Assembly (NCBI GenBank): GCA_017938885.1
Contig: JAGBAS010000093.1
Coordinates: 3,190 to 67,189, forward strand
DNA: 64,000 nucleotides
Direction of reading: 5' to 3'
From: Clostridia bacterium
GTDB lineage: Bacteria > Bacillota > Clostridia > Oscillospirales > CAG-272
A program made the position numbers and the translations under genes. A model generated the notes under the pieces. That model searched no databases. It saw only the letters and a program-made list of their open reading frames with translations, and had not been told where the DNA came from. Positions 39,400 to 60,216 of this stretch are shown here, piece by piece (the first letter of the stretch is position 1; every line of letters begins with the position of its first letter).

Positions 39400-41793
39400 T
39401 TAGGGATCCTTGCGATGCCTTCCGTCGATCCGCTCGAACAGCTCGTTCTTGCTTCCGACACCCAGCTTCCCGTAGACCTTTCGTGTGTATTCCTTGACGG
39501 TGTTGACCGTGATACCGAGATAGTAGGCGATCTCGCTCTGCTTTCTGCCCTTGAGCAGCTCGCGCAGCACGTCCAGCTCGCGGTCTGTCAGAAGATTGAC
39601 CTCCTCCGTATCCCGCAGGATGCGGTCGATCTCTTCATCCGTGTAGCGCATGCGAACAATGATGGGAGGCGGGACGGTTGCCGTGCCCTCGGCGGGGACT
39701 GCGTCAGAGACGGCAGGGATGGGCTCGCGCTCCTTGCGGTTGCGTCTGAAAAGGAGCAGAACGCAGACGACACCAAGCACCGACACGGCAACCGACAGGA
39801 GCACAATGGGAAGGAGAGGAAAGCGGGGAGGCTCCTCGCCGGGAGGTGCCGTCGAAGGCGTGACAGGCTCGGTGGCGGGAGTTGAAGTCACTTCGGTATC
39901 AGGCAATATGACAGGCTCCGTATCCGGCGTTGTGACAGGCTCAGTTACCGGCGTTGTGACAGGCTCCGTTACCGGCGGCTCGGGGGGAGCCGTCACGGGC
40001 GGCACTTCGGTCTCGTTAAGACGGTAGCAGGCGTAATAGGTGACGTCGCCTGCGGTACTGTGCACCGCACCCTCCGCGATAGGCTCTCCCTCACCGTCAG
40101 CCGTGGCGAACCATCCCGAGAAGGTATAGCCCTCCTTGGCCTCTGATTCAGGGAAGAGGATCGGTGCGCCGAAGTCGCAGGACACCCTCGTTTCCGTCTC
40201 TCCCATCACAAAGGTGATCTTGTAGGTGTTGGGTGTCCAGACCGCGTACAGATCGACGTACTCGGTGCCGCCTCCTACGGAGAGCCGCGTATCGGGGGCG
40301 TAGTCCCCTCCGTCACCGAATTGCCAACGGTCGAAGGTATAGCCGTCCTTTTGGTATTCGGGAAGGGTGGGTATCTCGCCATAGCAGACCGTGACGGTAT
40401 CCTTTACCTCTCCGTCCACAAGGAAACGGTAGGTCATATCGGAACGGGCATTGTTGCCTGCGTGGAAAACGCCGTGGCGGTTATCAAAGCGGTTACCCGA
40501 GACGCCCTCCAAAGCATCGCCGTCGATCTCCACGCTGCCCTCCATATGCTTATAAGGATCGCCCAAGTGATTGGTTTCGGTCATGTAACAGTATTGATTT
40601 GCTTCGCTCGGCATCGCTTCTGTGCGACCTTCGCCGTGAAGGGCACATCCGAACAAGGAAAGGCGTTCCGCATCGTATTCCTTCATAGCAGGCGTGTTGC
40701 CCGACAAGGTGGAGAGAACCAGGAAGGTCTTGCCCACACCTCCGCTACCGAGCTCCGCTTGGTTTTCGGATATGTAAAGCGCGCCGCCGGATGCGGCAGT
40801 ATTGTTTGCGATCGTGCCGTTGACAACGGTAACGAGGTTATTGCCGTAATTCTCGTTCCAGATACCGCCTCCGTTCTCGGTTGCACGATTGCCCGAGATC
40901 ACACAGCCGTCCAGTACGCTTTCGGTGTAAGAAAGCGCAATGCCTCCGCCGTTTCTGGCTTGGTTATCGAAAACGTAACAGTTCTTCATATGGAGCGTTC
41001 CGCGCCCCACGTAGACACCGCCGCCCTTGGTCAGCGTGTCGGGATAGAAATTCTCAAAGCGGTTTCCGCTGATCTTGCAGCTTTCAAGGGTAACGGTCGC
41101 CTGATCTGCCCATATCGCGCCGCCGTAACCCGATACGTTGCGGGAAAGCTCGCAGTTTTTCATATCAAGAAAGATATTGCCCGCGCCGGAAAGATAAATC
41201 GCGCCGCCATAGCCGCCTGCGTTGGCGTTCAGCGAACAGTCCTCAAAAGAGACGGACAAACGGTGACCTACGCTGTCGGCAGAAGAATAAATGCCGTAGA
41301 CCGCGCCGCCGTTTGCCATACTGTAACCCGAAAAATCACAGTTTACAAAGGCTGCATCGACACAGCGGGAGAAAAATACCGCCGGGCGGATCTTGGTCGC
41401 CGTCATGATCTGTTTCCCCGTAAAGTCGGTTTTGTCGATGTCATTCACGCCCGCAAAGGTGATATTTTCAAAACGGATATGTATGGTATCCTGCTCGGAC
41501 GCGCCGCCCATCACAGCAAACGCGCCGCCCGAAAAGACAGCAGGCGTATTCTTACCGCTTTTAATGGTCACTCCCTTAGAAAGTGTCATCCCCATCGGGG
41601 AGTAGGCAAATTCGATATCGCCGACAAGGATCGTATCGCCCTCACTTGCATGATGAAGTGCCTCCTTCAGCTCTGACTCTGTGGTGATCAGCTTGGGCTC
41701 GGCGGCGAACGCTCCCGTGCTCATCGCCGCAAGCACTGCCGCGACTGCCCAGATCGTCAAAAAAACGCATATGACTGTTTTTTTACGGTTCAT
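39400..41793 (-). CDS. Type I membrane protein: signal peptide, beta-helix with GGA[IV][YW] (Pmp-like) repeats, two Listeria-Bacteroides (Flg_new) repeats, P/T linker, one TM helix, C-terminal cytoplasmic LuxR/GerE HTH
   Basis: Signal peptide ...STGAFA/AE. Seven NGGA/YGGAI-type motifs. GYTFDRWQF and GYTFSGWF. TM FPLLPIVLLSVAVSVLGVVCVLLLF followed by RRNRKER. The C-terminus is LTDRELDVLRELLKGRKQSEIAYYLGITVNTVKEYTRKVYGKLGVGSKNELF. Confidence 0.8.
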   Translation of the reverse strand: MNRKKTVICVFLTIWAVAAVLAAMSTGAFAAEPKLITTESELKEALHHASEGDTILVGDIEFAYSPMGMTLSKGVTIKSGKNTPAVFSGGAFAVMGGASEQDTIHIRFENITFAGVNDIDKTDFTGKQIMTATKIRPAVFFSRCVDAAFVNCDFSGYSMANGGAVYGIYSSADSVGHRLSVSFEDCSLNANAGGYGGAIYLSGAGNIFLDMKNCELSRNVSGYGGAIWADQATVTLESCKISGNRFENFYPDTLTKGGGVYVGRGTLHMKNCYVFDNQARNGGGIALSYTESVLDGCVISGNRATENGGGIWNENYGNNLVTVVNGTIANNTAASGGALYISENQAELGSGGVGKTFLVLSTLSGNTPAMKEYDAERLSLFGCALHGEGRTEAMPSEANQYCYMTETNHLGDPYKHMEGSVEIDGDALEGVSGNRFDNRHGVFHAGNNARSDMTYRFLVDGEVKDTVTVCYGEIPTLPEYQKDGYTFDRWQFGDGGDYAPDTRLSVGGGTEYVDLYAVWTPNTYKITFVMGETETRVSCDFGAPILFPESEAKEGYTFSGWFATADGEGEPIAEGAVHSTAGDVTYYACYRLNETEVPPVTAPPEPPVTEPVTTPVTEPVTTPDTEPVILPDTEVTSTPATEPVTPSTAPPGEEPPRFPLLPIVLLSVAVSVLGVVCVLLLFRRNRKEREPIPAVSDAVPAEGTATVPPPIIVRMRYTDEEIDRILRDTEEVNLLTDRELDVLRELLKGRKQSEIAYYLGITVNTVKEYTRKVYGKLGVGSKNELFERIDGRHRKDP

Positions 41794-46514: not shown

Positions 46515-48662
46515 ATGAACCGTACCGTTACACGCCGCGCCCTGCCGTGGCTTCTTGCTCTGCTCATCCTCTGCCCGCTCACCGCCTGCGACAGAGGCAT
46601 TGATCCTGCCGAAACCGCGTCGCCTACCGATGAGGTGACTTCAACCGTCGGAGACCCTGTGGAAACGCCCGAGGACTCCGAAAGCGGCGCCGAGTCCCCC
46701 ACCGAATCCCCCACCGAGACACCCACCGAGACCCCCACCGAGGACGAGACCCAACCGCCCGAGGCCGACGACGGCACCATCCGCTTTGCCGTCCTCAGCG
46801 ACGTGCACATCGGCAAGTCCAACCTCCCCACCGATCCCGCCGATAAATTCGCCGCCGCGCTGGACACCGTCCACCGTGTGATGGGGACTCCCGATGCCAT
46901 CGTCATTGCAGGAGATCTCACCGATCTGGGCACCGATGCCCAGTATCAGGCGTTCAATACCGTTCTGTGGGATCACGTCCCCGGGGACACGGCGGTCTGT
47001 ACCGTCATGGGCAACCACGAGTATTTCCGTGACGGCGTGGTGCGCTTCGGCGGTGAGAGCGCGGCATTCATCAAGGAATGTCAGGATGCCTACCGCGGGG
47101 TTTTGGGTGAGCTGCACACCGATACCGTTGTGGACGGGATGCACATCATCGGCGTCTCCCCTTTGAGCAGCGCAGCTGACTATACCGCCGCCACCGACTT
47201 TCTCTGCGAGCACGTCCGCGCCGCCGCCGAGGAGGATCCCGTCATGCCCATCATCGTCTTCTCCCACGAGGGCTTCGGCTCCCTCCACGCCACGGGAGGC
47301 GGCCGCTTCGGAGCGGAGCTGGACAAGCTCATGCGGGAATACCCTCAAATCATCGCTTTTTCGGGGCATACCCACTACGCGCTGAACGATCCCCGCATGA
47401 TCCGTCAAAGCCTTATCACCTCCATCCAGACCTCTACCGTGGGCGCGGATTTCTGGAACTACAGCGGCATGGATCCCGCCCAGCCCGAGGGACGGGAGAC
47501 CGCCTCCCAGGGTCTTTTCGTAGAGGTCAGTCCCGACAAGGTGGTGACCGTCACCCGCTATGATTTCACCAACGATACCGCTATCGGGGAGGCGTGGGTG
47601 ATCGATGTCCCCGCCGTGGTGGAGTCCCGCGAGTCCTTTGCCTACACCGATGCCCGCAAGGATGCCGCAGAGGCTCCCTTATTCCCCGCGAACGCCAAGG
47701 CCGAGGTGAGGGGGATCACCTCCTATACCGCCACCCTCACCTTCCCCGCCGCTACGGTGGAGGATACGGTCTCAGACGGCTGTATCACCGCTTACTGCGT
47801 CGAGGTCAAGGATAGGGAAAGCGGCGCGGTCTACTTCTCCAAGTCCTTCCCTGCCGACAGCCACATGGGCAATGCCGCCAAAGAGCAGCTTACCGTTGAG
47901 TTGACAGGGCTGGAGCACGGGGTTGACTATACCCTCACGGTCACGGCCGAGAGCGCGTGGGGCAAGGTCTCCCGGCCCTTGACGGTGAACTTCTCCACCC
48001 CCAAGGATGAGAGCGCGGCTCCCGAACAGATGCCCGACAGGCTTCTCCACGTGGATTACACCACGGGTTCCCCCGCCGACACCGTCTCAGGGCTGACTAT
48101 GGAAACCTTTGGCACCCCCGTTCTGAAGGACGGCATGGCTGTTCTGGATAAGGAGAGCGTCTACGGCTACCACCTCACCGATAAAGAATACGCTGCCCTG
48201 ACGAATCAAGTCTCCATCGAGGCCACCGTCTACATTGACCGCGATCAGACCTACCCCTGGGGTTACGTCATGATCGTGGGCAACGCCGAGGCCGGGGGCT
48301 ATGACATCGCCGTGGTCAATGGCAAGGGAATGCAGTTCGAGGTCAATATCGGCGGCACCTACAAGCAGGTCGTCGTCCCCACGCCCTTCGGCCGCTGGGT
48401 TCACATCATCGCCTCCTACGATGGGCAGAACCTTCGTATCTACCTGGATGGTGAACTGGCCGCCTCCACCCCCTGCTCGGGAAGCATCAAGCACGTGGGA
48501 GAGAAGTCCCGCAAGCTCATGGTGGGTGCCGACGTCAACCAGGACGGTGTTCCCCAGTGCATCTCCAACATCAAGATCACCAAGGTCTCCCTCTACGCGG
48601 GCGGGATCTCGGCGGAGCAGGCAGCGGTTCTCTTTGCGGAGGCCGAGGTACCTACCGCATAA
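46515..48662 (+). CDS. Secreted lipoprotein: calcineurin-like metallophosphoesterase with C-terminal LamG/concanavalin-like domain
   Basis: Start at MNRTVTRRALPWLLALLILCPLTAC (lipobox); the 128-codon upstream extension in the ORF track is rejected. FAVLSDVHIG, IVIAGDLTD, VMGNHEY and FSGHTHY are phosphoesterase motifs. C-terminal LamG-like segment: WVHIIASYDGQNLRIYLDGEL. Confidence 0.8.
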   Translation: MNRTVTRRALPWLLALLILCPLTACDRGIDPAETASPTDEVTSTVGDPVETPEDSESGAESPTESPTETPTETPTEDETQPPEADDGTIRFAVLSDVHIGKSNLPTDPADKFAAALDTVHRVMGTPDAIVIAGDLTDLGTDAQYQAFNTVLWDHVPGDTAVCTVMGNHEYFRDGVVRFGGESAAFIKECQDAYRGVLGELHTDTVVDGMHIIGVSPLSSAADYTAATDFLCEHVRAAAEEDPVMPIIVFSHEGFGSLHATGGGRFGAELDKLMREYPQIIAFSGHTHYALNDPRMIRQSLITSIQTSTVGADFWNYSGMDPAQPEGRETASQGLFVEVSPDKVVTVTRYDFTNDTAIGEAWVIDVPAVVESRESFAYTDARKDAAEAPLFPANAKAEVRGITSYTATLTFPAATVEDTVSDGCITAYCVEVKDRESGAVYFSKSFPADSHMGNAAKEQLTVELTGLEHGVDYTLTVTAESAWGKVSRPLTVNFSTPKDESAAPEQMPDRLLHVDYTTGSPADTVSGLTMETFGTPVLKDGMAVLDKESVYGYHLTDKEYAALTNQVSIEATVYIDRDQTYPWGYVMIVGNAEAGGYDIAVVNGKGMQFEVNIGGTYKQVVVPTPFGRWVHIIASYDGQNLRIYLDGELAASTPCSGSIKHVGEKSRKLMVGADVNQDGVPQCISNIKITKVSLYAGGISAEQAAVLFAEAEVPTA

Positions 48663-49206: not shown

Positions 49207-49497
49207 CTACTTCCAGATGTCGATATTCACGTCCGCAACGTCCAGGTAGCAGAGCGTTCCCGCCTCGACCTGCTCTCGGGCCACGAAATCGGGAAGGAAC
49301 GAGATCATGTCGCTGTGCGCCAATATGCTCGTAATGATACCGGTCCGCCCGATCTCCAGAACGGGTGTGATCTCCAAAGACTTTTTCACAAGCTCCTTAT
49401 CGAACACATGGAGATCCCCTTGACTGTACTCGGTCAGGATGAAGGGCTCGCCCGCTATATCATTCACAACTGAATCGTAACAAAGACTATGATGAAG
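49207..49497 (-). pseudogene. LysR-family regulator, C-terminal substrate-binding fragment
   Basis: GEPFILTEYSQGDLHVFDKELVKKSLEITPVLEIGRTGIITSILAHSDMISFLPDFVAREQVEAGTLCYLDV. The upstream part of the tracked ORF is antisense nonsense. Confidence 0.5.
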
Positions 49498-49722
49498 ACG
49501 GAAGCCGCAACGATTTTCACAGAGAGTCGGGGACGGTGCGATCCCGATAAAGGACTGCGGATTTCCTATCCCTTCTGAGCCGGAAGCCCCAAAGGTTTGG
49601 CCCTCGGGCCGGGCACCCGGCAGACGCTTCCCGTGCATGCTGCGTGAATGCATAGAGGTTATACGACCTCGAAGAGGTGGCGGAGCATTTGTATCCACAA
49701 TTTGAATGGTACCGCGAGTAAG

Positions 49723-49948
49723 GAGGCGCTGATGAATGCCTTGATCGTGGATATGGCCCTGGGGTGCTCCACCAACAGTATGCTCCATTTGCCCGCCATC
49801 TCCCACAAGTGCGGTGTGGAGCTGAATACGGATATCGCCAACGGGATCAGCGCGGTCACGCCCAATCTTTTCCATCTTACGCCCGCGGGCCATACCTACA
49901 TGGAGGATCTGAACAAGGCGGGCGATGTCTATGCGGTCATGGACACAT
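49723..49948 (+). pseudogene. ilvD: Dihydroxy-acid dehydratase internal fragment
   Basis: EALMNALIVDMALGCSTNSMLHLPAISHKCGVELNTDIANGISAVTPNLFHLTPAGHTYMEDLNKAGDVYAVM matches the conserved IlvD core (DMALGGSTN..LHL.AIA...G). The flanks are unrelated. Confidence 0.6.
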
Positions 49949-50288
49949 CACTCCGGCTCCTTCAGATAACCATATCGGCTGTCTTGTGAGGAGGTGCCGG
50001 GCCGTTAACGGCACCGTCCCACGCACCGTCGGGCACAGAGTAACGGCCATTTTTCATTGGTCAGCAGTCCTCGCCTTCTCTGCGCTTCACGGCAAACCCG
50101 GAGCAGCCCTTCCCCGAAGGCTCAGTGTCTGCGACCCAATCACTCGCAGTGTGTCCCTTGGATGGTCTCCGTGTAAGATAAACGGAAAGAGCAAGCCGGG
50201 CGCGATGACCGTGCCGGACTTGCTCTGCGTTGGCTGAGACCGCGTCACGCGGTACCCGGCTCACTCCTTCGGGCTGAGTCCTCTCGGT

Positions 50289-50558
50289 TCAGTCCTCGAT
50301 GATAAGCCCCAGGGCCTTGAGCTTTTCAATGATCGCCGCGACGTCCGCCCGGATGACCGCGGGATCCTCCCCGTAGTCCTCGCTCATGATGCTCACGATG
50401 TCTTCGACGTCCTTACCTTCGGCCAGCATATCCCAGATCTCCCCTCCGGTCGGTGTCAGGACGTACAGTCCGTTCATTTCGCCGGCGGCCTCGCCAACGG
50501 GCACCAGCATATCCTCGTCTGCGACACAGCGATGGATCACGTTTTCATTCACCTTCAT
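50289..50558 (-). CDS. PqqD-family protein (RiPP recognition element)
   Basis: MKVNENVIHRCVADEDMLVPVGEAAGEMNGLYVLTPTGGEIWDMLAEGKDVEDIVSIMSEDYGEDPAVIRADVAAIIEKLKALGLI is a typical PqqD pattern. The start overlaps the rSAM stop by 14 nt. Confidence 0.8.
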   Translation of the reverse strand: MKVNENVIHRCVADEDMLVPVGEAAGEMNGLYVLTPTGGEIWDMLAEGKDVEDIVSIMSEDYGEDPAVIRADVAAIIEKLKALGLIIED

Positions 50559-51681
50559 AACAATCCTCCTTGAGGGGGTATTTTTTCCGAATGGCCTCGG
50601 CCAGCTCATGGGTCATGCGGCAGACGTACTCGGGGCGGATATCGGTCCTCCCCGTTTCGGACAGGCAGGCCGCCGCGCAGAGGGGGCATTGTGCTCGAAG
50701 GGCGCACTCGCGGCAGGCGGCAGGTAGCAGGATCGCGGCGGTATCCCGTCGGGTAGCCTCCCAGGCCTCCGCGAAGCTCATGTGCTTCAAATCATACCCG
50801 TCGGTGGGGAACATCCCGCAGGGGAGCATACGGCCGTCCCACGTGACCCAGAAATTGGTCTTGCCCGCCCGACAGCTCATCCGTTCCCCCTGCCCGTCGG
50901 TACAGTCCTCCGTGGGGTCGTGGGGCTCCGTCGGAACCATATCTCGGATCTGCTCGGGATCCATGTATTGCTCGCGGCAGAGCAGTGTATGAGCGGCGGC
51001 CTCCTCCGCCGTAAAGCGACACGCCGCCTCTCCGTACGCGCCGCCGTTGATCCGGGACGGAGGGAACATATAGGCAGTCCCCTTGACCACCAGGTCATTC
51101 TCCCGCGCGAAGCGGTAAATCTCCGGGACGTCCTTGGCATTGATCGGAGTCACGGAAGCATTCAGGCGGACCTGGATCCCCGCCTCCCGCAGCATACGGA
51201 TATTGGCCGCAACGGTATGAAAGCTTCCCTGCCCGCACAGCGCTCGGTAGGTCTCGTCCGAGGCGCCGTACAAGGAGATGTTCATTCGCAAGGGAGGGTC
51301 CTTTTTGAAGAACGCCACCCAATCGGGATCGATCAGGGAAGCGTTGGTATTGATGGAGATGAGCAGGCCCAGCCTCTTGAGCCCGCTGTAGATCTCCCGA
51401 AAGTCCTTTCGGATCAAGGGCTCCCCTCCCGTCAAAAGGAGGAACACCATGCCGGCGTCACGGGCCACCCGCCCCAGCTCCAGCCATTCCCGGGCCGTCC
51501 ATTCCTCCTCGGCTCGCACGGTCTGGTGAACGTAGCACATACGGCAGTTGAAATTGCATCGGGGCGTCAGCTCAAAATTGCCCGAAAGGGGGATGCCCCT
51601 CGCGGAAGCCTTCGCGTGGATGTATTGGTTCCACAGGGGCTCGATCCCGCGGGGCGTTTTCATTTTTTCATTCATATCCAT
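50545..51681 (-). CDS. Radical SAM / SPASM-domain peptide-modifying enzyme
   Basis: CNFNCRMC (CX3CX2C, residues 42-49). LLLTGGEPLIR. SPASM region: CRAGKTNFWVTWDGRMLPC (C-x12-G-x4-C) and CRECALRAQCPLCAAAC. The start overlaps the stop of the upstream gene. Confidence 0.85.
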   Translation of the reverse strand: MDMNEKMKTPRGIEPLWNQYIHAKASARGIPLSGNFELTPRCNFNCRMCYVHQTVRAEEEWTAREWLELGRVARDAGMVFLLLTGGEPLIRKDFREIYSGLKRLGLLISINTNASLIDPDWVAFFKKDPPLRMNISLYGASDETYRALCGQGSFHTVAANIRMLREAGIQVRLNASVTPINAKDVPEIYRFARENDLVVKGTAYMFPPSRINGGAYGEAACRFTAEEAAAHTLLCREQYMDPEQIRDMVPTEPHDPTEDCTDGQGERMSCRAGKTNFWVTWDGRMLPCGMFPTDGYDLKHMSFAEAWEATRRDTAAILLPAACRECALRAQCPLCAAACLSETGRTDIRPEYVCRMTHELAEAIRKKYPLKEDCYEGE

Positions 51682-52445
51682 TTTTCCAGATCCTCTACGG
51701 CGGAGGGATGGTCGATACAGTCGTAGGAGAAGATCGGCACGTGAGCGATCAGATCCATCAGGAGGGAGAACATACGGTCCACGCTCCTCCCGTCGGTCTC
51801 GTCATAGGAGCACTGGGGCATGAGCCGCGTCAAGGCTTGGGACGGCCTGCACCGCTCCACACAGTTTTCCGCGCCCTGTCCCAGCAGGATGATGGCGCGG
51901 ATCGGAGCGGTAACATTCGCCGTCAGATGGGCGCTTCCCGTTGCCCATGCGCCCGACGCCATATAGATCCCGTCCTTCTTATGGATCATCACCCGATCCT
52001 CGTTGACCACGGTGCTTCCCCGTTCCCTTTCCCAGTAGCGGGCCTGGGTCGATTTCCCCGTCCCGCTGGGCGCGGAAAACAGGATGGCCTTGCCCTCGTG
52101 CAACACGTAGGAGGCATGGAGCAGGCAGGCACCGTGCTCCGGGAGCAGATCCGCCACGCGGGCGGCGATGAACAGGTTGGCCACCGTGATCTCGGGGAGC
52201 AGCTCGGTCCTCATATATACGGTGATCTCGCGTCCGTTCCTTTCGGTGATCACGGGCCAGGCATCCACGGGATGTCGATCGGGACCAAGGGGACGGACGA
52301 GCAGGACGTGATCGGGCAGCTCCGAGGGCTCCGAGGAAAACGCCTCGAAGCGGGCATCCTCCCGCATGGGGACAGGCGTCTCCACCCGAAAGGTCAGATC
52401 TCCGAAGGTATACTGCTTAATGATGGGGGGATGTCTCTCGTTCAT
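51672..52445 (-). CDS. HPr-kinase-C-terminal-like P-loop protein (HprK-related)
   Basis: CLLHASYVLHEGKAILFSAPSGTGKSTQARYWE...VVNEDRVMI has the HprK-like fold pattern with a P-loop. Confidence 0.65.
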   Translation of the reverse strand: MNERHPPIIKQYTFGDLTFRVETPVPMREDARFEAFSSEPSELPDHVLLVRPLGPDRHPVDAWPVITERNGREITVYMRTELLPEITVANLFIAARVADLLPEHGACLLHASYVLHEGKAILFSAPSGTGKSTQARYWERERGSTVVNEDRVMIHKKDGIYMASGAWATGSAHLTANVTAPIRAIILLGQGAENCVERCRPSQALTRLMPQCSYDETDGRSVDRMFSLLMDLIAHVPIFSYDCIDHPSAVEDLEKWI

Positions 52446-52460
52446 AGTTCCATATGGGCG

Positions 52461-52495
52461 AAAAGCACCTCCCCTCTACGTGGGGGAGGGCTTTT
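52461..52495 (-). terminator. Stem-loop with a short U-run between precursor and maturase genes (candidate leaky terminator or attenuator)
   Basis: The minus strand reads AAAAGC-CCTCCCC-cacgtaga-GGGGAGG-t-GC-TTTT. The core is 7 bp of perfect GC-rich stem, extended by 2 bp and A-U pairs. Confidence 0.55.
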
Positions 52496-52506
52496 CTCAG
52501 GTATCA

Positions 52507-52746
52507 TTATGATTCGAATACGTTGTTATCCGCGGTGGGAACATGATAGCAGAACTCGCTGTCAGATGTGATGTCACAGCCTTTCATGAAAATGATGAAA
52601 CCGTTATCGTCATATCCGCAGCTTTGCCCGTCAGAAAAGGTTCCCACGTGACGGCAGCCGGACGATGCGTTGGAACTCAAAGAAAATTCAACGGCCATGA
52701 CGTCAGGCTTGGTATAAACTTTCGTCTTCTTACTGTTGTTCTTCAT
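52507..52746 (-). CDS. Candidate RiPP precursor peptide (79 aa; Lys-rich leader; core with 4 Cys and many Asp/Glu/Ser/Thr)
   Basis: MKNNSKKTKVYTKPDVMAVEFSLSSNASSGCRHVGTFSDGQSCGYDDNGFIIFMKGCDITSDSEFCYHVPTADNNVFES, with Cys at residues 31, 43, 57 and 66. RBS gaggaaagga. It is the first gene of the cassette. Confidence 0.6.
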   Translation of the reverse strand: MKNNSKKTKVYTKPDVMAVEFSLSSNASSGCRHVGTFSDGQSCGYDDNGFIIFMKGCDITSDSEFCYHVPTADNNVFES

Positions 52747-52780
52747 AGTGTTCTTATCCTTTCCTCAAAGGTCGTACCGA

Positions 52781-55700
52781 TCAAGAGCGCTTACGGCCTA
52801 CGAAAACGTAGGCTGCAAGCATGGCAATCGCAACCAGAGATCCCGTGCCGATCACGGAGCCGCATCCGGCCAGATCCTCGGTCGGTTCCTCCGTCAGGCC
52901 TTCGGTTTCACGCGCACCGTCAGTTTCGACAGGCGCAGGATCCGTATCTGTCACAGGCGCGTTTCCATCGGCAGGTTCGGTCTCGTCCGCGGTCTCGTCC
53001 TCAGCGGTCTGTTCCCCGTCGGGCTGACCCAGGTTGTCAACGGGAGGCTGACCGTCTCCGTCGTCGGGCAGGGGCTCGACTGCGGGGGGAGCGATCTCGG
53101 TCTCATCGCCGTCCACAGGCTTATCCCCGTCGGAAGCACCGCCGTCCGCCTCGGGAGCGCCGGAGCTGTACAGCAGGGCCATGACCTCGATACCCTCCGA
53201 AAGAGTCTCGGGATCCACCACGGGCCGGACCATGACGCCGTCCTGCTCAAAGGTGAACTTGAAGCCCGTGAAGGAGATCACGGAGGAGGTGTCGTGGAAG
53301 TACTCCCGATCGCTGTGGGAGAAGGTGATGACAGGGGTCTCGTAGTAGGCCACCTCACCGTTCTCGTCGGTCACGGGGGTCCAGGTGATGTGGTTCATAG
53401 GATAGAACATATTGGCTGCGCCATGGACGTGGAGGAAGTCGTGGGCACCGTGCTTGATGACGCCGTCGGTACCGACGGCCATCTTCACGCCGATGTGGGT
53501 GGCAGTCGGAATGGCCGTAGCGGTGAGCTTGAAGGAGATGCCCTGGCCCTTGGCGAGATAAAGCTCATTGTTGGGGCCGGGATTCTCGTAATCCTTGATG
53601 CTGACCGTAGCGTCCTTACCGTCGATGAAAACCACACCGGGGAGGGTCTCCTGATCCCGGATCTCACCGATCCCCAGGACCAGATCCTTCATGGTCATGT
53701 AGAAGGGAGCATACTCCTTATCGGCCTTATGGGCATTGTCCGCGGTCTCGTTGCCCTTGGCGGGATCGTAAATGCGGATGGAGTCCAGCACGAAGGTACT
53801 GGTGCCGTCGGGATACAGGTAGTCCACACTCTCCAGGAAGATCACGCTGATCTTCACGGTGTAGGCGGCCTGCTCCAGTCCGCTGAGCTTGATCACAGGG
53901 ACCTGCCATACCGTATCCTCGGAGGAAGCGTTGGGCTGCCAGCCCTCTTCCTCGGAGTAGGTATAGCCGTAGTAGTTGTTGACCGACTTGGAGGCGACCT
54001 TATGGCCATCCTTGTCGTATACCGTCACCAGGATGGTGGCGCCCACGTTATCAGTCAGGGAGATGATATCGAAGCCGGTCCCCGTGAAGGTAAAGGTAGC
54101 GGTGGGAGCGGTCCGGGGATTACCCAGATCGAGGTTCACGGTGACGGCCTTGGCACCGCCGTTACTGAAGGTGGCGCAGGAGGTGTAGGAGGGATCGAAG
54201 CCGTAGACGTTATTGGCGTCGAGGCTGGCGAGATTATTGAAGCCGGGACGGTCCACGCTCTGAGGAGCGTTGGGATCGGCCGTACCCACGTCGGTCCACA
54301 CGCCCAGGGTATCGGTGGCGGCGGAGGAATCCTCAAAGGTGAGGAAGTCCTCCTCAAAGTACATATTGGCGGCGGGGATGACCGTGATGGTACCGTAGTA
54401 GTAGCGACTCTCGTACAGCACCGCATAGGAGAAGATCTCCGGCTCGGTCATGTTGGTGCCCACGCCCTGTCGGAGGGCGTAGCGGATCCCGTTCGGGGTG
54501 ATGGTGGCGGTGCCGAACTTGCCCTCATAGACGGTGCGCAGAGTACCATCCGCGACGAAGGAGGCGGACAGATGAGCCTCGCCGTTGACGCTGGCCGACG
54601 TGGTGTGGGGACCGACGGCGACGATACCGCCCTTGTTGTAGAACATATCGTTCAGAAGGGCCTGGATGTTCACGGGCTGACCGTAGTCGATGACTACCAC
54701 GTCGCTGACGGGCTTGACGGTGTAGACCACGGCGAACCACACGATGGTGTGGGTGTAATCGTAGGCGGGATCGTCCTCCTCCAGCTCGTTGGTGAACTGG
54801 TAGCTGTCGTGACCCGTTACGTAGGTAGAGGAGGTGGGGACGTTGCCCTTACCGATGGTCCAGGCGCTGGCACCCAGAGCGGATCTGACGTGGACGGTAT
54901 AGGTCGCGTCCTTATCGTAGAGCTCGTAGCCCTCGGGCAGATCCTGCGCGGCCAGCTCGGCGGCGTTCAAGGACACCGTGGAGTTGAGCAGGGCATAGAA
55001 GGTGGGGGTGGTGATATTCAGGCGGTTGGCGAAGGAGCCGGTCATGCCCATCTCCTGATTGACCAGGGACAGACCGTTCTCATCTACCAGGTAGAAGGCA
55101 TAGCGGACGGACGCGGCCTGCCACGGGATCTGGGGAGACACGGTCTCGCGGTAGGCATCGTTACCCAGCCAGTTGGTGTAGTACAGGATCGCGCTCTGGT
55201 TGGTATTGTAGGTGCCGGGCTCCAGCTCGCCCTCCATGGAGCCGTCCAGATAGACGTAGTAGGACAGCACCATGTCATGCTGGTTGATGGTACCCATATC
55301 CCAGTAGAAGGACTCGTTGGCCAGCAGGTAGTCCTCGGTGCCGTCCAGATCCGAGTCGATCATCACGGAGTAGTCGTTGGTGTTGTACCAGAAGTGACGG
55401 GCATAGATAACGCCGTTTTGCATGATGTTTCCGCCGAAGATGCTGGAGTATGCCTCGGTACCGTCGGCGTTGAAGGTGACGGTCTCCACCACGGTGCTCA
55501 TTCCGTTACGGGTACCGATCTTATCGTGGGGGATGATACCCGCCTCCACGTCGGCGTGGGTGTACAGACCGTACAGGGTGAACTTGATCTCGGGCAGGAT
55601 GCTGCGGTTCTCGAAGCGGCCCTCGCTGTTCAGGAACCTGTAATCCACCCGGGACATCTGAAGGTCGAACTGCTTGCCCATGGTGTCCACGAAGTAGGCA

Positions 55701-58700
55701 TCGGTGGCGGCGTAGTTGATCTCCTGACCGATCATGTGGAAGGCATTGTGGAGATCGTCGGCGGTGTTGGCCTCGTAGTACAGAAGATCCTTGTTGGAGG
55801 AGATATTGCGAAGGACAGTCCGCATGGTCTCCAGCTCGATCCTGTTATCCTTGGCCAAGCAGAAGCCGATGGAGAACATGGTCGCGCCCAGACCGGGCAA
55901 GGTATAGATGTTCTGCTTGTCGGTAGCCTCCAAATAGCCCTCCAAGCCATTGGTATTCTTACGGACAACGGTGTAGCGCTGCGCGGGATCGCCCTTGATG
56001 GCCTCGGCCATCCAGTGCTTGCCCTCGGGGTTGTAGTAATTCTTGTTGGCGTTCCGATCGAACATGGAGTCGGTCACGGTACCCGTGAGCCAGTTGTTCC
56101 AGTTGGAATTGGAGGACGAGCCGCTGAAGTAGTTGTACTGGTAGGGCGCACCGTCGGACATGAAGATCACGAAGAGGTCGCGGTCCTCATGGGCCTCCTC
56201 ATTCGCCTGCTTCACAGAGGAAGTGATCTGGTAGACCACATCAAAGGCGTAGTCATAGTTGGTACCCGAATGGGTCGTCTGCAGGCGGATGGGCGTTTTG
56301 CCCTCGTCCTTATACAGAACACCGTTGCGCACGTCCAGATCGTGCACGCTGACCAGCGAGTCCGCGGTCATAGTGCCTTTTCCGGTATACACGTTACCGC
56401 CCACGCTGCTCGACGTACCCTGCGTAGAGGCATTCACAAGGTGATCCTTGCTCTCCAGGTAGTAGGGGTAGCCGGAGCCGAGGTAGTTGTTGAAGTCGGC
56501 GATGGAAACACGGATATCCATGGGCTCGCCGTCCTCACCATCTCTTTGCAGCTCGGCGATCAGCTCGGACAAGGACTCGGTGAGGACCTCCTGACGGGAG
56601 ACACCGTTCAGGTAATTGTTTCTCATGGAGCTGGAGGTATCCAGCATGATAATGACGTCAGCGCCTCGCTTCACGGGAACGCCCGTGGCGGACAGCTCGA
56701 CTCTGGCCACGCCCGTGTTGTTGAAGTCGATGGCGGTCGTGCCCTTGTTGACGCGGATGGAGCCCTCGTGGGGGAACTCGGGGTAGTTGTTGACGTAGAC
56801 GTTCAGGGTGTAGCCGGGGATGCGCTGATCGGCGTAGACGATGGTCAGATCCTCATAGACACCGGGCTTGCGGAGGTTGAAGTCACCCTCCAGCATATCC
56901 GTCGTAACGTGCTGACGGGCGGAGGTGCCGTCGGAATAGGTCACGTGCAGGATGGAGCCGGTGTTGGTGTTGTCACTGGAGGCAGAGCCCACCATAGGAT
57001 CGCAGGTGATGGAAGAGATGGCGCGGGCCTTGACGGTGACCACGTACTTGGTGATCTCCACACCGTTGTACCGAATGGACAAGGTGTAGTTTCCTGCCGT
57101 AGTGGGATCCGCGGTGCCCTCGATGGTGTAATCGTGGACGATCTTCTTGTTCGTGCCCTTAGTATCAGTAGCGGTGAAGATGGAGAAGGACTCGCGGATG
57201 ACGTGCTTGAGGGCATCGTAGCTGCCGTATACCCCCGCAGGGATGGTCACGCCCGAGGAGCCCAGGAAGCTGGCGTACAGGGAGGGGGTGGAGGTCGTCT
57301 CCTCAGCCATCAGGTACACGCGGTTGGTTCGGCTTCCGCCGCCCATCACAAAGGTATTGCGGATATAATACTTTTGGTTGCCGGAACCCGTGTACAGACC
57401 GTATTTACTGTCGAGCTTCCAGGTCGTATAATTATCGTTCTTGTTCGTCGTGAAGCTCAGTGCCTGCTTCCTGTCATTTCCCATGAGGTAGTACACGGTG
57501 CCGTCTTCAGCGGTGTGGGTGAATCTGCTGCCGTCGTACGTCCAGATCATGCTGTCCGTAGCCGACTCAATGTAGTTACCGTCGTGGTTGTTCTGAAGAA
57601 CGGTGACGGTCTCCTGCGTCAGCTTATTCTCGCCGAAGGCAATGACCTTGCGGTCGCCCCGGCTGTAGCTGTTCGAGATCAGGTAGCGCTCACCTTTGGT
57701 CAGCGACTGCGAATACCGCCAGATGGAGGTCTCCGAGGAATCCACGTGGATCCAACCGTGATCCACGGTCTCGGGGCCGTACTCGGGAGACTGTACGTTG
57801 TTGCTTACCTTCAGCGAAATGGTCTCGCTATTCTCGTAGATGCGGGCGGAGGGATCGTACATGGTGCGCTCCACCTCGTCCAGACCGTAGTCCGCGCCGT
57901 AGTTGCCCTTGGCCTTCAGATTATGAAGGCCGCTCGCATCGAAGCGGTTGATCTCCACGCGATCCTCATAAATGGCAAAGGTGGTCATGGTCAGGGCAGT
58001 ATCGACACCACTGCCCATGTCCTCGTAGTAGCCGGTAAAGCCGGCGTTCATGTAGGTGAACTTCAGGGTATAGCGATCGTAGCCCGTCTTGGTGCCGTCG
58101 GCAACGGGGAGGACGTTACCGGGGCGCAGGAACACGGAGGAGCCGCCCAGGTAATCATCCCAGCCGTGGGAGTGATCGTGACCGTACAGGTAGATGATAT
58201 CCAGGCCATCCCCTGCCGCGTGGTTGTTGAGCACCTTGATCAGCTTGTCCGCATAGCGGGCATCACCGTCGCGGTAGGTACGCATGGAGTAATGCAGGGG
58301 CAGGTGGGACACCACGAAAATGGGCTTCTTGTAGCCCTCGGCGGCCTTGGCGGACAGGTACTTGTCTAGAGCCTCGGCGGTGGCGGCGACCGTCGCCTCG
58401 TCGGTGTTCTGGTGCATATAGTCCTTCTCGTTGATGACGAACACGCCGTAGTGGTCCGTATCGTTGTTCCCGCTGGGGGACAGGACACCGCTCGACACCA
58501 GTTCGTCGGGGTCGTGGTTGCCCTGAGTGAAGACGTAATCCTCAATGCCCAGTCCGCTTCCCTCCACGGTCTGGGCTAAGGTATCCTTGCCCTGCTCAGA
58601 GGTGTCGTAGTCATAGTCATAGTCGCCCGCGAACAGAAGGCCGTACGCCGAGGGATACTTCTGGCGTATGGCGATCAGGATGGCGTTCACGTTGGCAGAG

Positions 58701-58876
58701 CTCTGCCCGTGACCGTTGGGGCTCTGGAAGTCCGAGCCGGCCACGACGACAATGGGCTCCTCTGCGGCGGAAAGGGCCGCAGAAAGTCCCTCCGCGAAAA
58801 CGCCGAGGGGCAGGACGCCCACGATCATAACGATGGCGAGCATGGCGGATGCGTATCGTAGGAATCTCTTTTTCAT
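52781..58876 (-). CDS. Giant (2031 aa) surface protein: N-terminal metallophosphoesterase, long beta-rich region, vWA domain with MIDAS, acidic tail, C-terminal GCGS-TM-RKRS anchor
   Basis: Signal peptide ...GVFAEG. GSDFQ, FAGDYDY, QGNHD and YGHDHSHGW. vWA: VIIMLDTSSSM (DTSSS at 56627-56641) ...VIFMSDGAPY. The C-terminus is LAGCGSVIGTGSLVAIAMLAAYVFVGRKRS. Confidence 0.85.
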   Translation of the reverse strand: MKKRFLRYASAMLAIVMIVGVLPLGVFAEGLSAALSAAEEPIVVVAGSDFQSPNGHGQSSANVNAILIAIRQKYPSAYGLLFAGDYDYDYDTSEQGKDTLAQTVEGSGLGIEDYVFTQGNHDPDELVSSGVLSPSGNNDTDHYGVFVINEKDYMHQNTDEATVAATAEALDKYLSAKAAEGYKKPIFVVSHLPLHYSMRTYRDGDARYADKLIKVLNNHAAGDGLDIIYLYGHDHSHGWDDYLGGSSVFLRPGNVLPVADGTKTGYDRYTLKFTYMNAGFTGYYEDMGSGVDTALTMTTFAIYEDRVEINRFDASGLHNLKAKGNYGADYGLDEVERTMYDPSARIYENSETISLKVSNNVQSPEYGPETVDHGWIHVDSSETSIWRYSQSLTKGERYLISNSYSRGDRKVIAFGENKLTQETVTVLQNNHDGNYIESATDSMIWTYDGSRFTHTAEDGTVYYLMGNDRKQALSFTTNKNDNYTTWKLDSKYGLYTGSGNQKYYIRNTFVMGGGSRTNRVYLMAEETTSTPSLYASFLGSSGVTIPAGVYGSYDALKHVIRESFSIFTATDTKGTNKKIVHDYTIEGTADPTTAGNYTLSIRYNGVEITKYVVTVKARAISSITCDPMVGSASSDNTNTGSILHVTYSDGTSARQHVTTDMLEGDFNLRKPGVYEDLTIVYADQRIPGYTLNVYVNNYPEFPHEGSIRVNKGTTAIDFNNTGVARVELSATGVPVKRGADVIIMLDTSSSMRNNYLNGVSRQEVLTESLSELIAELQRDGEDGEPMDIRVSIADFNNYLGSGYPYYLESKDHLVNASTQGTSSSVGGNVYTGKGTMTADSLVSVHDLDVRNGVLYKDEGKTPIRLQTTHSGTNYDYAFDVVYQITSSVKQANEEAHEDRDLFVIFMSDGAPYQYNYFSGSSSNSNWNNWLTGTVTDSMFDRNANKNYYNPEGKHWMAEAIKGDPAQRYTVVRKNTNGLEGYLEATDKQNIYTLPGLGATMFSIGFCLAKDNRIELETMRTVLRNISSNKDLLYYEANTADDLHNAFHMIGQEINYAATDAYFVDTMGKQFDLQMSRVDYRFLNSEGRFENRSILPEIKFTLYGLYTHADVEAGIIPHDKIGTRNGMSTVVETVTFNADGTEAYSSIFGGNIMQNGVIYARHFWYNTNDYSVMIDSDLDGTEDYLLANESFYWDMGTINQHDMVLSYYVYLDGSMEGELEPGTYNTNQSAILYYTNWLGNDAYRETVSPQIPWQAASVRYAFYLVDENGLSLVNQEMGMTGSFANRLNITTPTFYALLNSTVSLNAAELAAQDLPEGYELYDKDATYTVHVRSALGASAWTIGKGNVPTSSTYVTGHDSYQFTNELEEDDPAYDYTHTIVWFAVVYTVKPVSDVVVIDYGQPVNIQALLNDMFYNKGGIVAVGPHTTSASVNGEAHLSASFVADGTLRTVYEGKFGTATITPNGIRYALRQGVGTNMTEPEIFSYAVLYESRYYYGTITVIPAANMYFEEDFLTFEDSSAATDTLGVWTDVGTADPNAPQSVDRPGFNNLASLDANNVYGFDPSYTSCATFSNGGAKAVTVNLDLGNPRTAPTATFTFTGTGFDIISLTDNVGATILVTVYDKDGHKVASKSVNNYYGYTYSEEEGWQPNASSEDTVWQVPVIKLSGLEQAAYTVKISVIFLESVDYLYPDGTSTFVLDSIRIYDPAKGNETADNAHKADKEYAPFYMTMKDLVLGIGEIRDQETLPGVVFIDGKDATVSIKDYENPGPNNELYLAKGQGISFKLTATAIPTATHIGVKMAVGTDGVIKHGAHDFLHVHGAANMFYPMNHITWTPVTDENGEVAYYETPVITFSHSDREYFHDTSSVISFTGFKFTFEQDGVMVRPVVDPETLSEGIEVMALLYSSGAPEADGGASDGDKPVDGDETEIAPPAVEPLPDDGDGQPPVDNLGQPDGEQTAEDETADETEPADGNAPVTDTDPAPVETDGARETEGLTEEPTEDLAGCGSVIGTGSLVAIAMLAAYVFVGRKRS

Positions 58877-59044
58877 CGTACACTCCTTATATTGTCAAAC
58901 TATATGGACATTGATCGATAGAGGCAGAAAAGCACTTAGATATGAATAGGAGGCAACGAAGCATGGGCAAGCCGCACCTGCGTACCGCCGACGGCCCATC
59001 CCTTGTATCACAATGCCGTTTCATGCTCTTCTTCTGCGAAAAGG

Positions 59045-59073
59045 ATTATACCACGAATAGACGGATTTGTCAA
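59045..59073 (-). promoter_or_regulatory. Perfect-consensus sigma-70 promoter of 52781-58876, with a 5' UTR of about 160 nt
   Basis: The minus strand reads TTGACA (59068-73), N17 (aatccgtctattcgtgg), TATAAT (59045-50). Confidence 0.65.
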
Positions 59074-59314
59074 TAACATTCCCAAAAAAACGCATAAATC
59101 ATCTATATGAACAGATCGGTCTCCACAACGCAACCGATCCGCCTCCGCTGGAGAGGAGCAGGTGACCGGGCATCCAAAAGGGCGCAGCCAAATGCTTTTC
59201 AGAAAAGCAAACGGCAGAGCCCTTGGTTTGACAAAAGAAACAGATGCAAAGTAACGATTCCAGTTATCATCGCTTAAGACGGCTTTCGGCGGAACACCGT
59301 CCGATGCGCTTCTC

Positions 59315-60216
59315 TCAGAGCTTTTCCTTTTTGCTATATGCGGAAGGAGAGATCCCGTGCGCTTTGGTAAAGGAATTGATGAAGAAAAAGTAATCCTCAA
59401 AGCCGCAGTCGCGGGCGGTATCCTGTACCGACCTCCCCAGGCTGAGCAGCTGCGCCGCGTGATCCATGCGGATACGCATATGATACTGCTTGGCTGTACA
59501 GCCGAATTGGGTTTTAAAGACCTGGTTGATATGGTGATAGCTCCGATCCAAAGCCTGCTCATAGTCCTGCACCCGTAATGGGGCACAGGCATTTTTTTGT
59601 ATAAAAAACAACGTCTGCTCAGCCAGGGTGCCGTGCTTCTCCAGCTTCGGATTCTTTTGACAGCTCAGGCTGATCAGCGACAGCAGGGCCCGAAGCTGCT
59701 GTGTCAGAAAGCCGCGGTCGGCATAGGGACTGAGGTAAAGGCTGTACAGGATCTCTGCGTAGGCCAAGCAGTCGATCTCGCAGGGGAGCGATCCGATCAT
59801 GGGGAGAAGCAGTCGGGAGGCATCGACCCGCATCGGCGCTTCGACTGCTTTGCCTTGCATAGAAAAATGGAAAAAAACGCCGCATGATCGTCGTACTCCA
59901 ACGGATCGACTTGTGTATGGGGAGGAAGAAGGAAGAATTCATTCATTCCGATGCGGAGCTTTTCTCCGTTCAGCAACAATGTCCTCTGTCCTTTTTTCAC
60001 GATCACGAAGATCCAGAAAGGAAGCTCCTTACAGGAAGGATGTCGGGAAACCGTATCGACGAATCCCATATCCCGAAGGTTCAGATCGCCCTCCAACAAA
60101 TGCCATGTACTGTGATGCACCGTGTTTGCCTCCCGTTTTCCTATAGATACGTTTTCCGCGGATGCGCTTTTTTGTGAAACAGAAAGAAATATTTCATGTC
60201 TTTCGGAAACCGACAT
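59315..60216 (-). pseudogene. AraC-family regulator split by a frameshift at a homopolymer
   Basis: The cupin half (59797-60216) and the HTH half (59315-59860; ...HINQVFKTQFGCTAKQYHMRIRMDHAAQLL...DCGFEDYFFFINSFTKAHGISPSAY) overlap in different frames. One extra T in the T7 run (59871-59877 on the plus strand) would join them as ...DDHAAFFFHFSMQGKAVE... Confidence 0.75.

Follow-up and report, generated by a model that had tools for sequence, protein, structure and literature searches.

Which substrate does a cassette act on when it joins an HPr-kinase-like (HprK-like) P-loop protein to a PqqD-type protein and a radical S-adenosylmethionine (SAM)/SPASM enzyme, and what would its product be for? 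Such ScmC-type cassettes have so far been comparative-genomics families only, without a substrate or a function. Here we analyse one of them, at positions 50289-52746 of a 64,000-nucleotide stretch of Clostridia bacterium DNA (contig JAGBAS010000093.1, assembly GCA_017938885.1; the whole stretch is referred to as the window). A preliminary description of this DNA had proposed a compact cassette of four genes as an uncharacterised system for a peptide made on ribosomes and modified after its translation (RiPP). Judged by gene order and conservation across relatives, the locus is a member of a larger conserved module of gut Clostridia, in which a surface protein (G) and a four-cysteine candidate precursor (A) are followed by a hairpin, a membrane protein that is optional and missing here (X), the ScmC-like P-loop protein (B), the radical SAM/SPASM enzyme (C) and the PqqD-type recognition protein (D). 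The association with G is the truly unexpected element.

A conserved module around the cassette

The components expected of an uncharacterised RiPP-type system were all found: a radical SAM/SPASM enzyme, a discrete PqqD-type protein, an HprK-like P-loop protein and a cysteine-bearing precursor. As first described, their four co-directional reading frames are present on the minus strand in the list of open reading frames (ORFs), namely A (52507-52746, 79 amino acids (aa)), B (51672-52445, 257 aa), C (50545-51681, 378 aa) and D (50289-50558, 89 aa), with B and C overlapping by 10 nt (51672-51681) and C and D by 14 nt (50545-50558). D is read as 89 aa because AAGGAGG stands just 5′ of the ATG at 50558; the alternative reading of 106 aa from 50609 is less likely. 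The cassette is not a compact set of four genes, however, as the conserved module also takes in G, a called ORF on the same strand (52781-58876) for a secreted surface protein of 2031 aa that is probably co-transcribed with A. Among the ORFs of the window the module is represented by G, A, B, C and D only, and neither X (sought by tblastn) nor any paralogue of A-D and G was detected elsewhere in the 64 kb.

The survey of B's relatives took in several metagenome contigs and 80 loci from genomes, and in one subclass the genes run G, A, (X), B, C, D. Profiles place an ORF with the conserved module of G no more than 4 kb from B in at least 27 loci, with A separated from that ORF by 3-133 nt in almost every case (34 nt in the window). 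The adjacency of G and A is kept in other gene orders, including B-C-G-A in L028 and L037 and B-A-G in L019, and also where the genes are arranged divergently (L084). When the search was reversed and started from the module of G, all five relatives whose contigs were sampled adjoined an A-like gene of 80-95 aa together with ScmC, radical SAM and PqqD genes. X was present in four of these five loci, and one of the G proteins concerned is only 887 aa long.

Genes outside the interval from G to D vary between loci. Around this interval, no peptidase, exporter or transporter, or immunity gene is conserved in the loci examined, and the absence of a leader protease and an exporter that had been remarked on for the window holds both there and at related loci, where none is linked to the module. 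Pfam matches to Asn-synthase or transglutaminase were likewise lacking among the called neighbours in related loci. The carriers of the relatives are Oscillospiraceae, Ruminococcus, Lachnospiraceae and similar metagenome-assembled genomes, which agrees with the Clostridia-like genome assumed at the outset.

A promoter-like site lies 5′ of G on the minus strand (59045-59073; TTGACA, 17 nt, TG-TATAAT). It is a consensus match only, but it matches at 12 of 12 positions, stands 169 nt upstream of the G start and is the only perfect match in 49800-59600. Between A and B there is a GC-rich, terminator- or attenuator-like hairpin with a T-run (52460-52489, minus strand), and a strong hairpin comes just after the stop codon of A in 24 of 26 loci, its sequence being unrelated from locus to locus and its z-score between -3 and -6.7. 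G and A are probably co-transcribed, and these signals are most simply read as a transcript of G and A, some of which would continue into B, C and D.

The candidate precursor A

A has a Lys-rich N-terminus and four cysteines. Sequence scans of Pfam, NCBIfam and PDB returned no match for it, and a profile of A searched against PDB gave nothing meaningful. By comparison with its relatives it is a real conserved gene, beyond what chance would produce, because it is under strong purifying selection (dN/dS 0.04-0.11 against L087 and L001, with dS saturated), belongs to a family of 537 clusters and keeps its place in the gene order throughout the close relatives examined. The family was obtained at 50% identity from a profile search of 1.84 billion cluster representatives, and 12 close relatives were found in the protein collection. 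Nearly all members are 72-95 aa long, and the profile match spans residue 2 to the last residue. This end-to-end match at a near-constant length fits the early idea that the product could be a crosslinked mini-protein, the crosslinks being predicted, and the possibility raised alongside it, that the ORF might be absent or not conserved at syntenic loci, is answered by its conservation and synteny there.

Residue conservation was computed over 146 of the 537 cluster representatives. We place the leader at about residues 1-30 and the core at about residues 31-79. The leader motif of A, Y11-T-K13-P14-D-V16, takes the family form Y-x-K-P-x-[IV] (Y11 100%, K13 91%, P14 99%, I/V16 91%) and is of the lasso type; F21 (97%), I27 (90%) and A28 (92%) follow it. 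The features of the core are C31, C43, C57, the segment C66-Y67-H-V-P70 and the C-terminal F77-E-S79. C31, C57 and C66 are conserved at 100% and C43 at 98%, and the other conserved core positions are F53 (90%), Y67 (99%), P70 (97%), F77 (97%) and S79 (99%). Exactly four cysteines occur in 124 of the 146 representatives, the terminal residue is Ser in 141 and the chain ends in F-x-S-COOH in 139. Ser79 is the sole invariant Ser/Thr of the core and, besides Y67, its sole invariant hydroxyl residue. The lasso-type leader motif and the invariant C-terminal F-x-S had been missed in the preliminary description, as had the larger module with G.

Inspection ruled out a lipoprotein or Sec signal in A, since the residues leading up to C31 form no hydrophobic segment and Asp or Asn is frequent at position -1. 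Two variants of the family were observed. In a Selenomonadaceae locus (L009, 7305-8896) three tandem A paralogues follow G; two of the three are without the C66-Y-H motif, and all end in F-N-S-L, not F-x-S. A metagenomic protein of 457 aa (P0317) looks like a G module cut short and continued in frame by an A-like C-terminus. It is probably an assembly or gene-calling artefact and was not used as evidence, although a natural G-A fusion would be informative.

The recognition protein, the radical SAM enzyme and the ScmC-like protein

Searches with the models named in the preliminary description supported part of its assignments, with clear Pfam matches of C to Radical_SAM (8.9e-26) and of D to PqqD (4.8e-16); SPASM and the Scm and HPr-rel-A models stayed under their cut-offs. 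D is a discrete PqqD-type RiPP recognition element (RRE). Its best NCBIfam matches are lasso PqqD chaperones (31 bits against cut-offs of 70-80), and its closest solved relative, over the full length, is the lasso leader-binding protein TbiB1 (5v1u, 5e-4). Discrete lasso recognition proteins bind the motif [Y/W]xxPx[L/V/I/F/A] (PMC13381572).

C carries a SAM cluster motif of the form CX3CX2C (C42-x3-C46-x2-C49, within CNFNCRMC). The Pfam SPASM score is 18.0 bits, under the gathering threshold of 21.5, but the SPASM domain can be taken as real despite this weak score because its seven cysteines (C270-x12-G-x4-C288, C323-x2-C326-x5-C332-x2-C335 and C354) are invariant in 21 orthologues, as are C42, C46 and C49. 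The spacing C332-x2-C335 departs from the canonical x3. As C has no fused recognition domain, D presumably delivers A to it. No curated NCBIfam maturase model reached its cut-off (score against cut-off in bits: StsB 76/625, SkfB 54/300, AlbA 47/850, mycofactocin maturase 70.4/265, PqqE 63.6/381), a cyclophane-synthase model is not among the best 25 NCBIfam matches, and the nearest solved structure by sequence is SkfB (2e-11). C is equidistant from many curated maturases, all of them far under cut-off, and therefore its reaction is not readable from sequence. A defence system was also considered and rejected: PADLOC matched only the N-terminal core of C (aa 35-184) to pVip, a generic viperin core, and gave nothing for A, B, D or G.

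The P-loop of B reads SAPSGTGKST, and H110, the P-loop A125-A135 (with K131) and N148-x-D150-R151 are invariant in homologues. For homologues at 93% and 51% identity there is a precomputed Pfam hit to PF27840 'ScmC', and B is placed in that family through them. Direct NCBIfam matches are weak and all far below cut-off (HprK_rel_B 1.2e-7, ScmC 6.1e-5, HprK_rel_A 4e-4). By sequence, an ScmC profile found marginal phosphoenolpyruvate carboxykinase (PEPCK)/P-loop matches only in PDB, and a fold comparison was needed to settle the fold. In Foldseek searches an AlphaFold model of B (pLDDT 93) matched ATP-dependent PEPCK (3e-8) and HPr kinase/phosphatase (1.6e-5), confirming the PEP-carboxykinase/HPr-kinase fold at the level of a predicted structure. 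Lasso kinases require a His-Lys-Asp-Asp catalytic motif (PMC9266682), and H110, K131 and D150 of B match three of its four residues by motif order, not by a residue-level structural alignment.

ScmC-like genes also occur in other settings. Cassettes without G (L008, L011, L013 at about 9200-9690, L034, L054 and L060) have precursors whose leader is of the same type (MKxxYxxPxM/F...VAAC) and quite different cores, some 130-148 aa and others 43-56 aa long. The ScmC-type machinery thus seems to serve several precursor families. For 24 of 93 ScmC-like genes there is a PqqD partner and no radical SAM gene nearby, and in L057 (9663-10640) such an ScmC and PqqD pair adjoins groES/groEL and a protein of 489 aa, and no precursor is obvious.

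The surface protein G and the membrane protein X

G begins with a signal peptide and ends in a GCGS motif, a transmembrane helix and an RKRS tail (GRKRS). Beyond a weak match to Big_3, no Pfam, NCBIfam or PDB sequence match was found. In L085 the gene for a G relative was divided by gene calling, and because its pieces carry VWA and GBS104-like Ig Pfam matches, the comparison points to G being adhesin-like. A coverage profile across G homologues showed that only about aa 1390-1880 (53237-54709, minus strand) is common to all cassette-linked G proteins; alone, this module has 140 relatives in the protein collection. Its AlphaFold model (pLDDT 84) is all-beta with beta-sandwich domains, and a fold search returned beta-sandwich matches of low TM-score only, to Cry, Vip3, GH101 and CBM51 (jelly-roll/CBM-like), which suggests a module without enzymatic function.

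The remainder of G varies. The GCGS, transmembrane and GRKRS end of the protein studied here (52781-52870, minus strand) differs from that of most homologues, in which an acidic Pro-rich linker is followed by a short amphipathic tail of the KKxxKKLFGWLF type, for example KKIVKKLFGWLFG or RDMWDWFKGWF. Such tails were seen in L003, L009, L017, L021, L022, L024, L025, L028, L030, L037, L038, L045 and L086 and may represent an undescribed C-terminal anchoring or sorting signal; some G homologues bear dockerin or SLH domains. In the N-terminal 330 aa or so of G, motifs of a calcineurin-like phosphoesterase are visible by eye (GSDFQ, GDYDYDYD, GNHD, SHLPLH, GHDH), as is a VWA-like DxSxS stretch (DTSSSM) at about aa 740-910; neither is scored by Pfam. 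Of 18 G homologues, just 6 have the N-terminal region in common. If A proves to be phosphorylated, it would be of interest that its putative partner might bear a phosphoesterase domain outside the cell.

Protein X, of about 240-280 aa and either membrane-anchored or of lipoprotein type, lies between A and B in most G-linked loci (for example L003 5284-6147, L025 8950-9720 and L086 9598-10332) and is missing in the clade of the window. NCBIfam and Pfam scans assigned it to no known family, and it shows the motifs YMEDGS...QYA...YYKN...YGGITYR.

Surroundings of the module in the window

Directly 3′ of D (49207-49989) are gene remnants, a LysR substrate-binding fragment on the minus strand and a fragment of an IlvD N-terminal domain on the plus strand that covers profile positions 217-296 of 316, which suggests that the module's edge has decayed or been rearranged. 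The region from 1 to 48662 encodes mostly large secreted proteins and glycoside hydrolases (GH31, GH123, apiosidase-like, PA14, F5/8 type C), and the ORFs scanned there included neither an ABC exporter nor a peptidase. It includes a BspA-type leucine-rich-repeat protein of 2227 aa (32171-38854) and a second metallophosphoesterase/fn3/LamG protein (46518-48662). A 797-aa protein (39400-41793, minus strand) combines Listeria-Bacteroides and PMP-like repeats with a C-terminal LuxR-type GerE DNA-binding domain, an unusual mix.

Discussion

We propose that D binds the leader of A, that C crosslinks its cysteines, that B phosphorylates Ser79 and that the product works with G, and we give this model as a whole an even chance of being right. 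G and A would be transcribed together from the site at 59073, and the hairpin after A would allow just a portion of these transcripts to extend into B, C and D. By homology and motif, D may bind the Y-x-K-P-x-V of the leader much as lasso B1 proteins bind Y-x-x-P-x-L, and so present A to the enzymes. C, with one SAM cluster and a full SPASM domain, would then make intramolecular crosslinks within the core of about 50 residues. The likeliest of these are thioethers formed from the four cysteines, and thioethers are the most economical guess because the four cysteines are near-invariant in the family of A.

B would act as an ATP-dependent phosphotransferase of the HPr-kinase/PEP-carboxykinase fold, most likely directed at the invariant C-terminal Ser79, and by analogy with the paeninodin-type lasso kinases we hold this assignment with moderate confidence. 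In paeninodin-type clusters an HprK-like kinase phosphorylates the extremely conserved C-terminal Ser of the precursor (PMC9266682), and in the system of linear polyphosphorylated peptides (LPP) LppK modifies Ser3, with S3T and S3Y variants not phosphorylated (PMC13381572). Ser79 is proposed as the target because HprK-like RiPP kinases act on precursor Ser residues, because it is the only invariant Ser/Thr available and because B keeps H110, K131, D150 and R151. The modified A, of about 80 aa, would most likely be a stoichiometric partner or ligand of the beta-rich C-terminal module of G, as gene linkage suggests. We favour this role over that of a free, diffusible bacteriocin because there is no linked protease, exporter or immunity gene, because A is of fixed length and conserved from end to end, because it is placed before the hairpin and because its linkage to G is reciprocal. 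More tentatively, and with the balance of probability against it, a mini-protein of this size, crosslinked by a radical SAM enzyme and phosphorylated on its C-terminal Ser, may be an obligatory stoichiometric partner (a subunit, plug, ligand or anchor) of large adhesin-like surface proteins in gut Clostridia that needs no dedicated protease or exporter. Such a product would be a post-translationally 'welded' accessory protein rather than a natural-product antibiotic, and a new kind of system could then be defined by the module.

Several points weigh against the proposed model. Linkage of genes is not physical interaction, and A has no signal peptide and no linked exporter, while G and X are extracytoplasmic, which poses a topological problem for any meeting of A and G. 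The four cysteines could form disulfides, with C acting on other residues. In B the residue preceding D150 is Glu or Gly, against Asp in the lasso-kinase motif, and with this second acidic residue not kept, kinase activity is not assured; B is also far under every curated HprK-related cut-off. Finally, other cassettes with ScmC, radical SAM and PqqD genes (L034, L054, L060) are without G and have short precursors of 43-56 aa. These do not end in Ser, and therefore phosphorylation of a C-terminal Ser is not a general function of ScmC proteins.

The same G-less cassettes would suit a secreted RiPP of the conventional sort. A would then be a bacteriocin or signal resembling sactipeptides or ranthipeptides, crosslinked, stripped of its leader and exported by unlinked housekeeping proteases and transporters, with G adjacent through shared regulation or co-transfer. 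The locus does have the layout of a classic RiPP operon in its radical SAM/SPASM enzyme, recognition protein, cysteine-bearing precursor and attenuator-like hairpin. We nevertheless consider a secreted product unlikely, given that a peptidase, an ABC exporter and an immunity gene are conserved in none of the loci examined and that the adjacency of G and A outlasts changes in gene order and recurs in five of five reverse tests. In addition, A is conserved over its full 72-95 aa to a fixed C-terminus, whereas bacteriocin cores are hypervariable. It is similarly improbable, in our estimation, that the players are right and the chemistry is different, with C making C-C cyclophanes on F77-E-S79 and/or Y67-H-V69, or linking a Cys to the carbon alpha to the C-terminal carboxylate, and B serving as a non-kinase ATP-binding scaffold or activating something else. 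Both reactions have precedent: triceptide synthases are radical SAM/SPASM enzymes that form a three-residue cyclophane on aromatic-X-X motifs (PMC11499958), and PapB is able to join Cys to the carbon alpha to the C-terminal carboxylate (PMC12373016). F77 (97%), S79 (99%) and Y67 (99%) are conserved as strongly as the cysteines, a Cys link next to the carboxylate would explain Ser as the obligate last residue, and B does not conserve the lasso-kinase motif's second acidic residue. Set against these points are the 98-100% conservation of the four cysteines, the thioether maturases StsB, SkfB and AlbA among the best full-length curated matches of C (with low scores), the lack of a cyclophane-synthase model among its best 25 NCBIfam matches, and the invariant P-loop, H110, D150 and R151 of B, which favour catalysis over a scaffold.

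Least probable by a wide measure is that A is a cofactor precursor in the style of PQQ or mycofactocin, from which C would modify the C-terminal residues and a small molecule would be freed for use by G. PqqE and MftC are radical SAM/SPASM enzymes with a PqqD-type partner, and the target of MftC is a C-terminal dipeptide that does not vary. A likewise has an invariant C-terminus, and the mycofactocin maturase and PqqE are among the NCBIfam matches of C, but their scores fall far under cut-off (70 against 265 and 64 against 381 bits). Moreover, there is no linked peptidase or further tailoring gene, conservation covers the whole 50-residue core including the four cysteines, and the module of G is a beta-sandwich with no recognisable redox or enzyme fold.

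Returning to the proposed model, its closest working analogue is most likely the leader, recognition and kinase module of paeninodin-type lasso clusters (PadeK/ThcoK/PsmK with B1), with the lasso enzymes replaced by a radical SAM/SPASM enzyme. We take this module as the closest tested analogue because of the lasso-type leader motif and the invariant C-terminal F-x-S. The two share a discrete PqqD-type protein, a Y-x-x-P-x-[LVI] leader, an HPr-kinase-like P-loop enzyme and a terminal Ser. Our locus differs in having a radical SAM/SPASM enzyme where the lasso cyclase and B2 protease would be, a four-cysteine core of about 50 aa and linkage to a surface protein, and B is distant from the lasso kinases (20-31 bits in NCBIfam against cut-offs of 200). 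The LPP system (LppA/K/B/S; Popov et al. 2026, PMC13381572) is likewise from Bacillota and combines an HprK-like kinase and a discrete recognition protein with long precursors (35-200 aa), a Y-x-x-P-x-V leader and a product that stays a sizeable polypeptide. In contrast to our locus, it has no radical SAM enzyme, is linked to a SipW-like peptidase, an NTP transferase and an exporter, is phosphorylated on core Ser3 and has highly variable C-termini, where that of A is invariant.

The kinship with the SynChlorMet (Scm) and HPr-rel-A systems that was suggested in the preliminary description stands at the level of the Pfam family, with relatives of B in PF27840 and the same trio of HprK-like, PqqD-like and radical SAM/SPASM proteins. 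It does not extend to the NCBIfam models, whose cut-offs are far from reached by either the SynChlorMet comparisons (bits against cut-off: ScmC (TIGR04249) 22.5/125, ScmD 16.4/100, ScmE 77.1/400, ScmF 53.1/400) or the HPr-rel-A comparisons (HprK_rel_A 19.7/200, HprK_rel_B 31.2/200, PqqD_rel_X 20.1/35). SynChlorMet also has two radical SAM/SPASM proteins (ScmE and ScmF), where there is one here. Judged by NCBIfam, the locus belongs to none of the SynChlorMet, HPr-rel-A, lasso, mycofactocin, PQQ or named sactipeptide systems. Our literature search found no paper on ScmC-type cassettes or on an HPr kinase together with radical SAM and PqqD proteins, and none using the name 'SynChlorMet'; a compendium of RRE-associated radical SAM enzymes makes no mention of kinases.

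Sactipeptide and ranthipeptide maturation (SkfB, AlbA, StsB, PapB, CteB) has in common with the locus a radical SAM/SPASM enzyme and a recognition element acting on a cysteine-bearing precursor. In sactipeptides a Cys sulfur is joined to the C-alpha of an acceptor residue, and in ranthipeptides to its C-beta or C-gamma. Our system differs in its separate recognition protein, its longer precursor conserved from end to end, its extra P-loop enzyme and the lack of a protease and exporter, and thioether chemistry is here a prediction. Triceptides and the actinobacterial 'FxSxx-COOH' radical SAM system resemble the locus in motif only, through the invariant F-x-S of A, and triceptides do not need the four invariant cysteines that A has. 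QhpC, of quinohemoprotein amine dehydrogenase, is a small protein of 80-110 aa that is crosslinked at Cys by the radical SAM/SPASM enzyme QhpD and then becomes a subunit of a larger extracytoplasmic complex. It offers the closest concept for a modified A, with no sequence relationship detected, but QhpC has a protease (QhpE) and an exporter (QhpF) of its own, and its partners are redox enzymes.

For the ScmC family, the locus now gives a candidate substrate family of 537 clusters that is fixed in length, has four cysteines and ends in F-x-S. It also gives each enzyme a site that can be tested, and it reveals a very consistent genetic partner in a large surface protein whose beta-rich module is not recognised by Pfam, NCBIfam or PDB searches. 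If the proposed model is true, the leader, recognition and kinase logic of lasso-type systems has been recombined with radical SAM chemistry, and the function of ScmC-family proteins becomes directly testable. It would also mean that, in abundant Clostridia of gut and rumen, the accessory proteins of cell-surface structures can be products of RiPP machinery.

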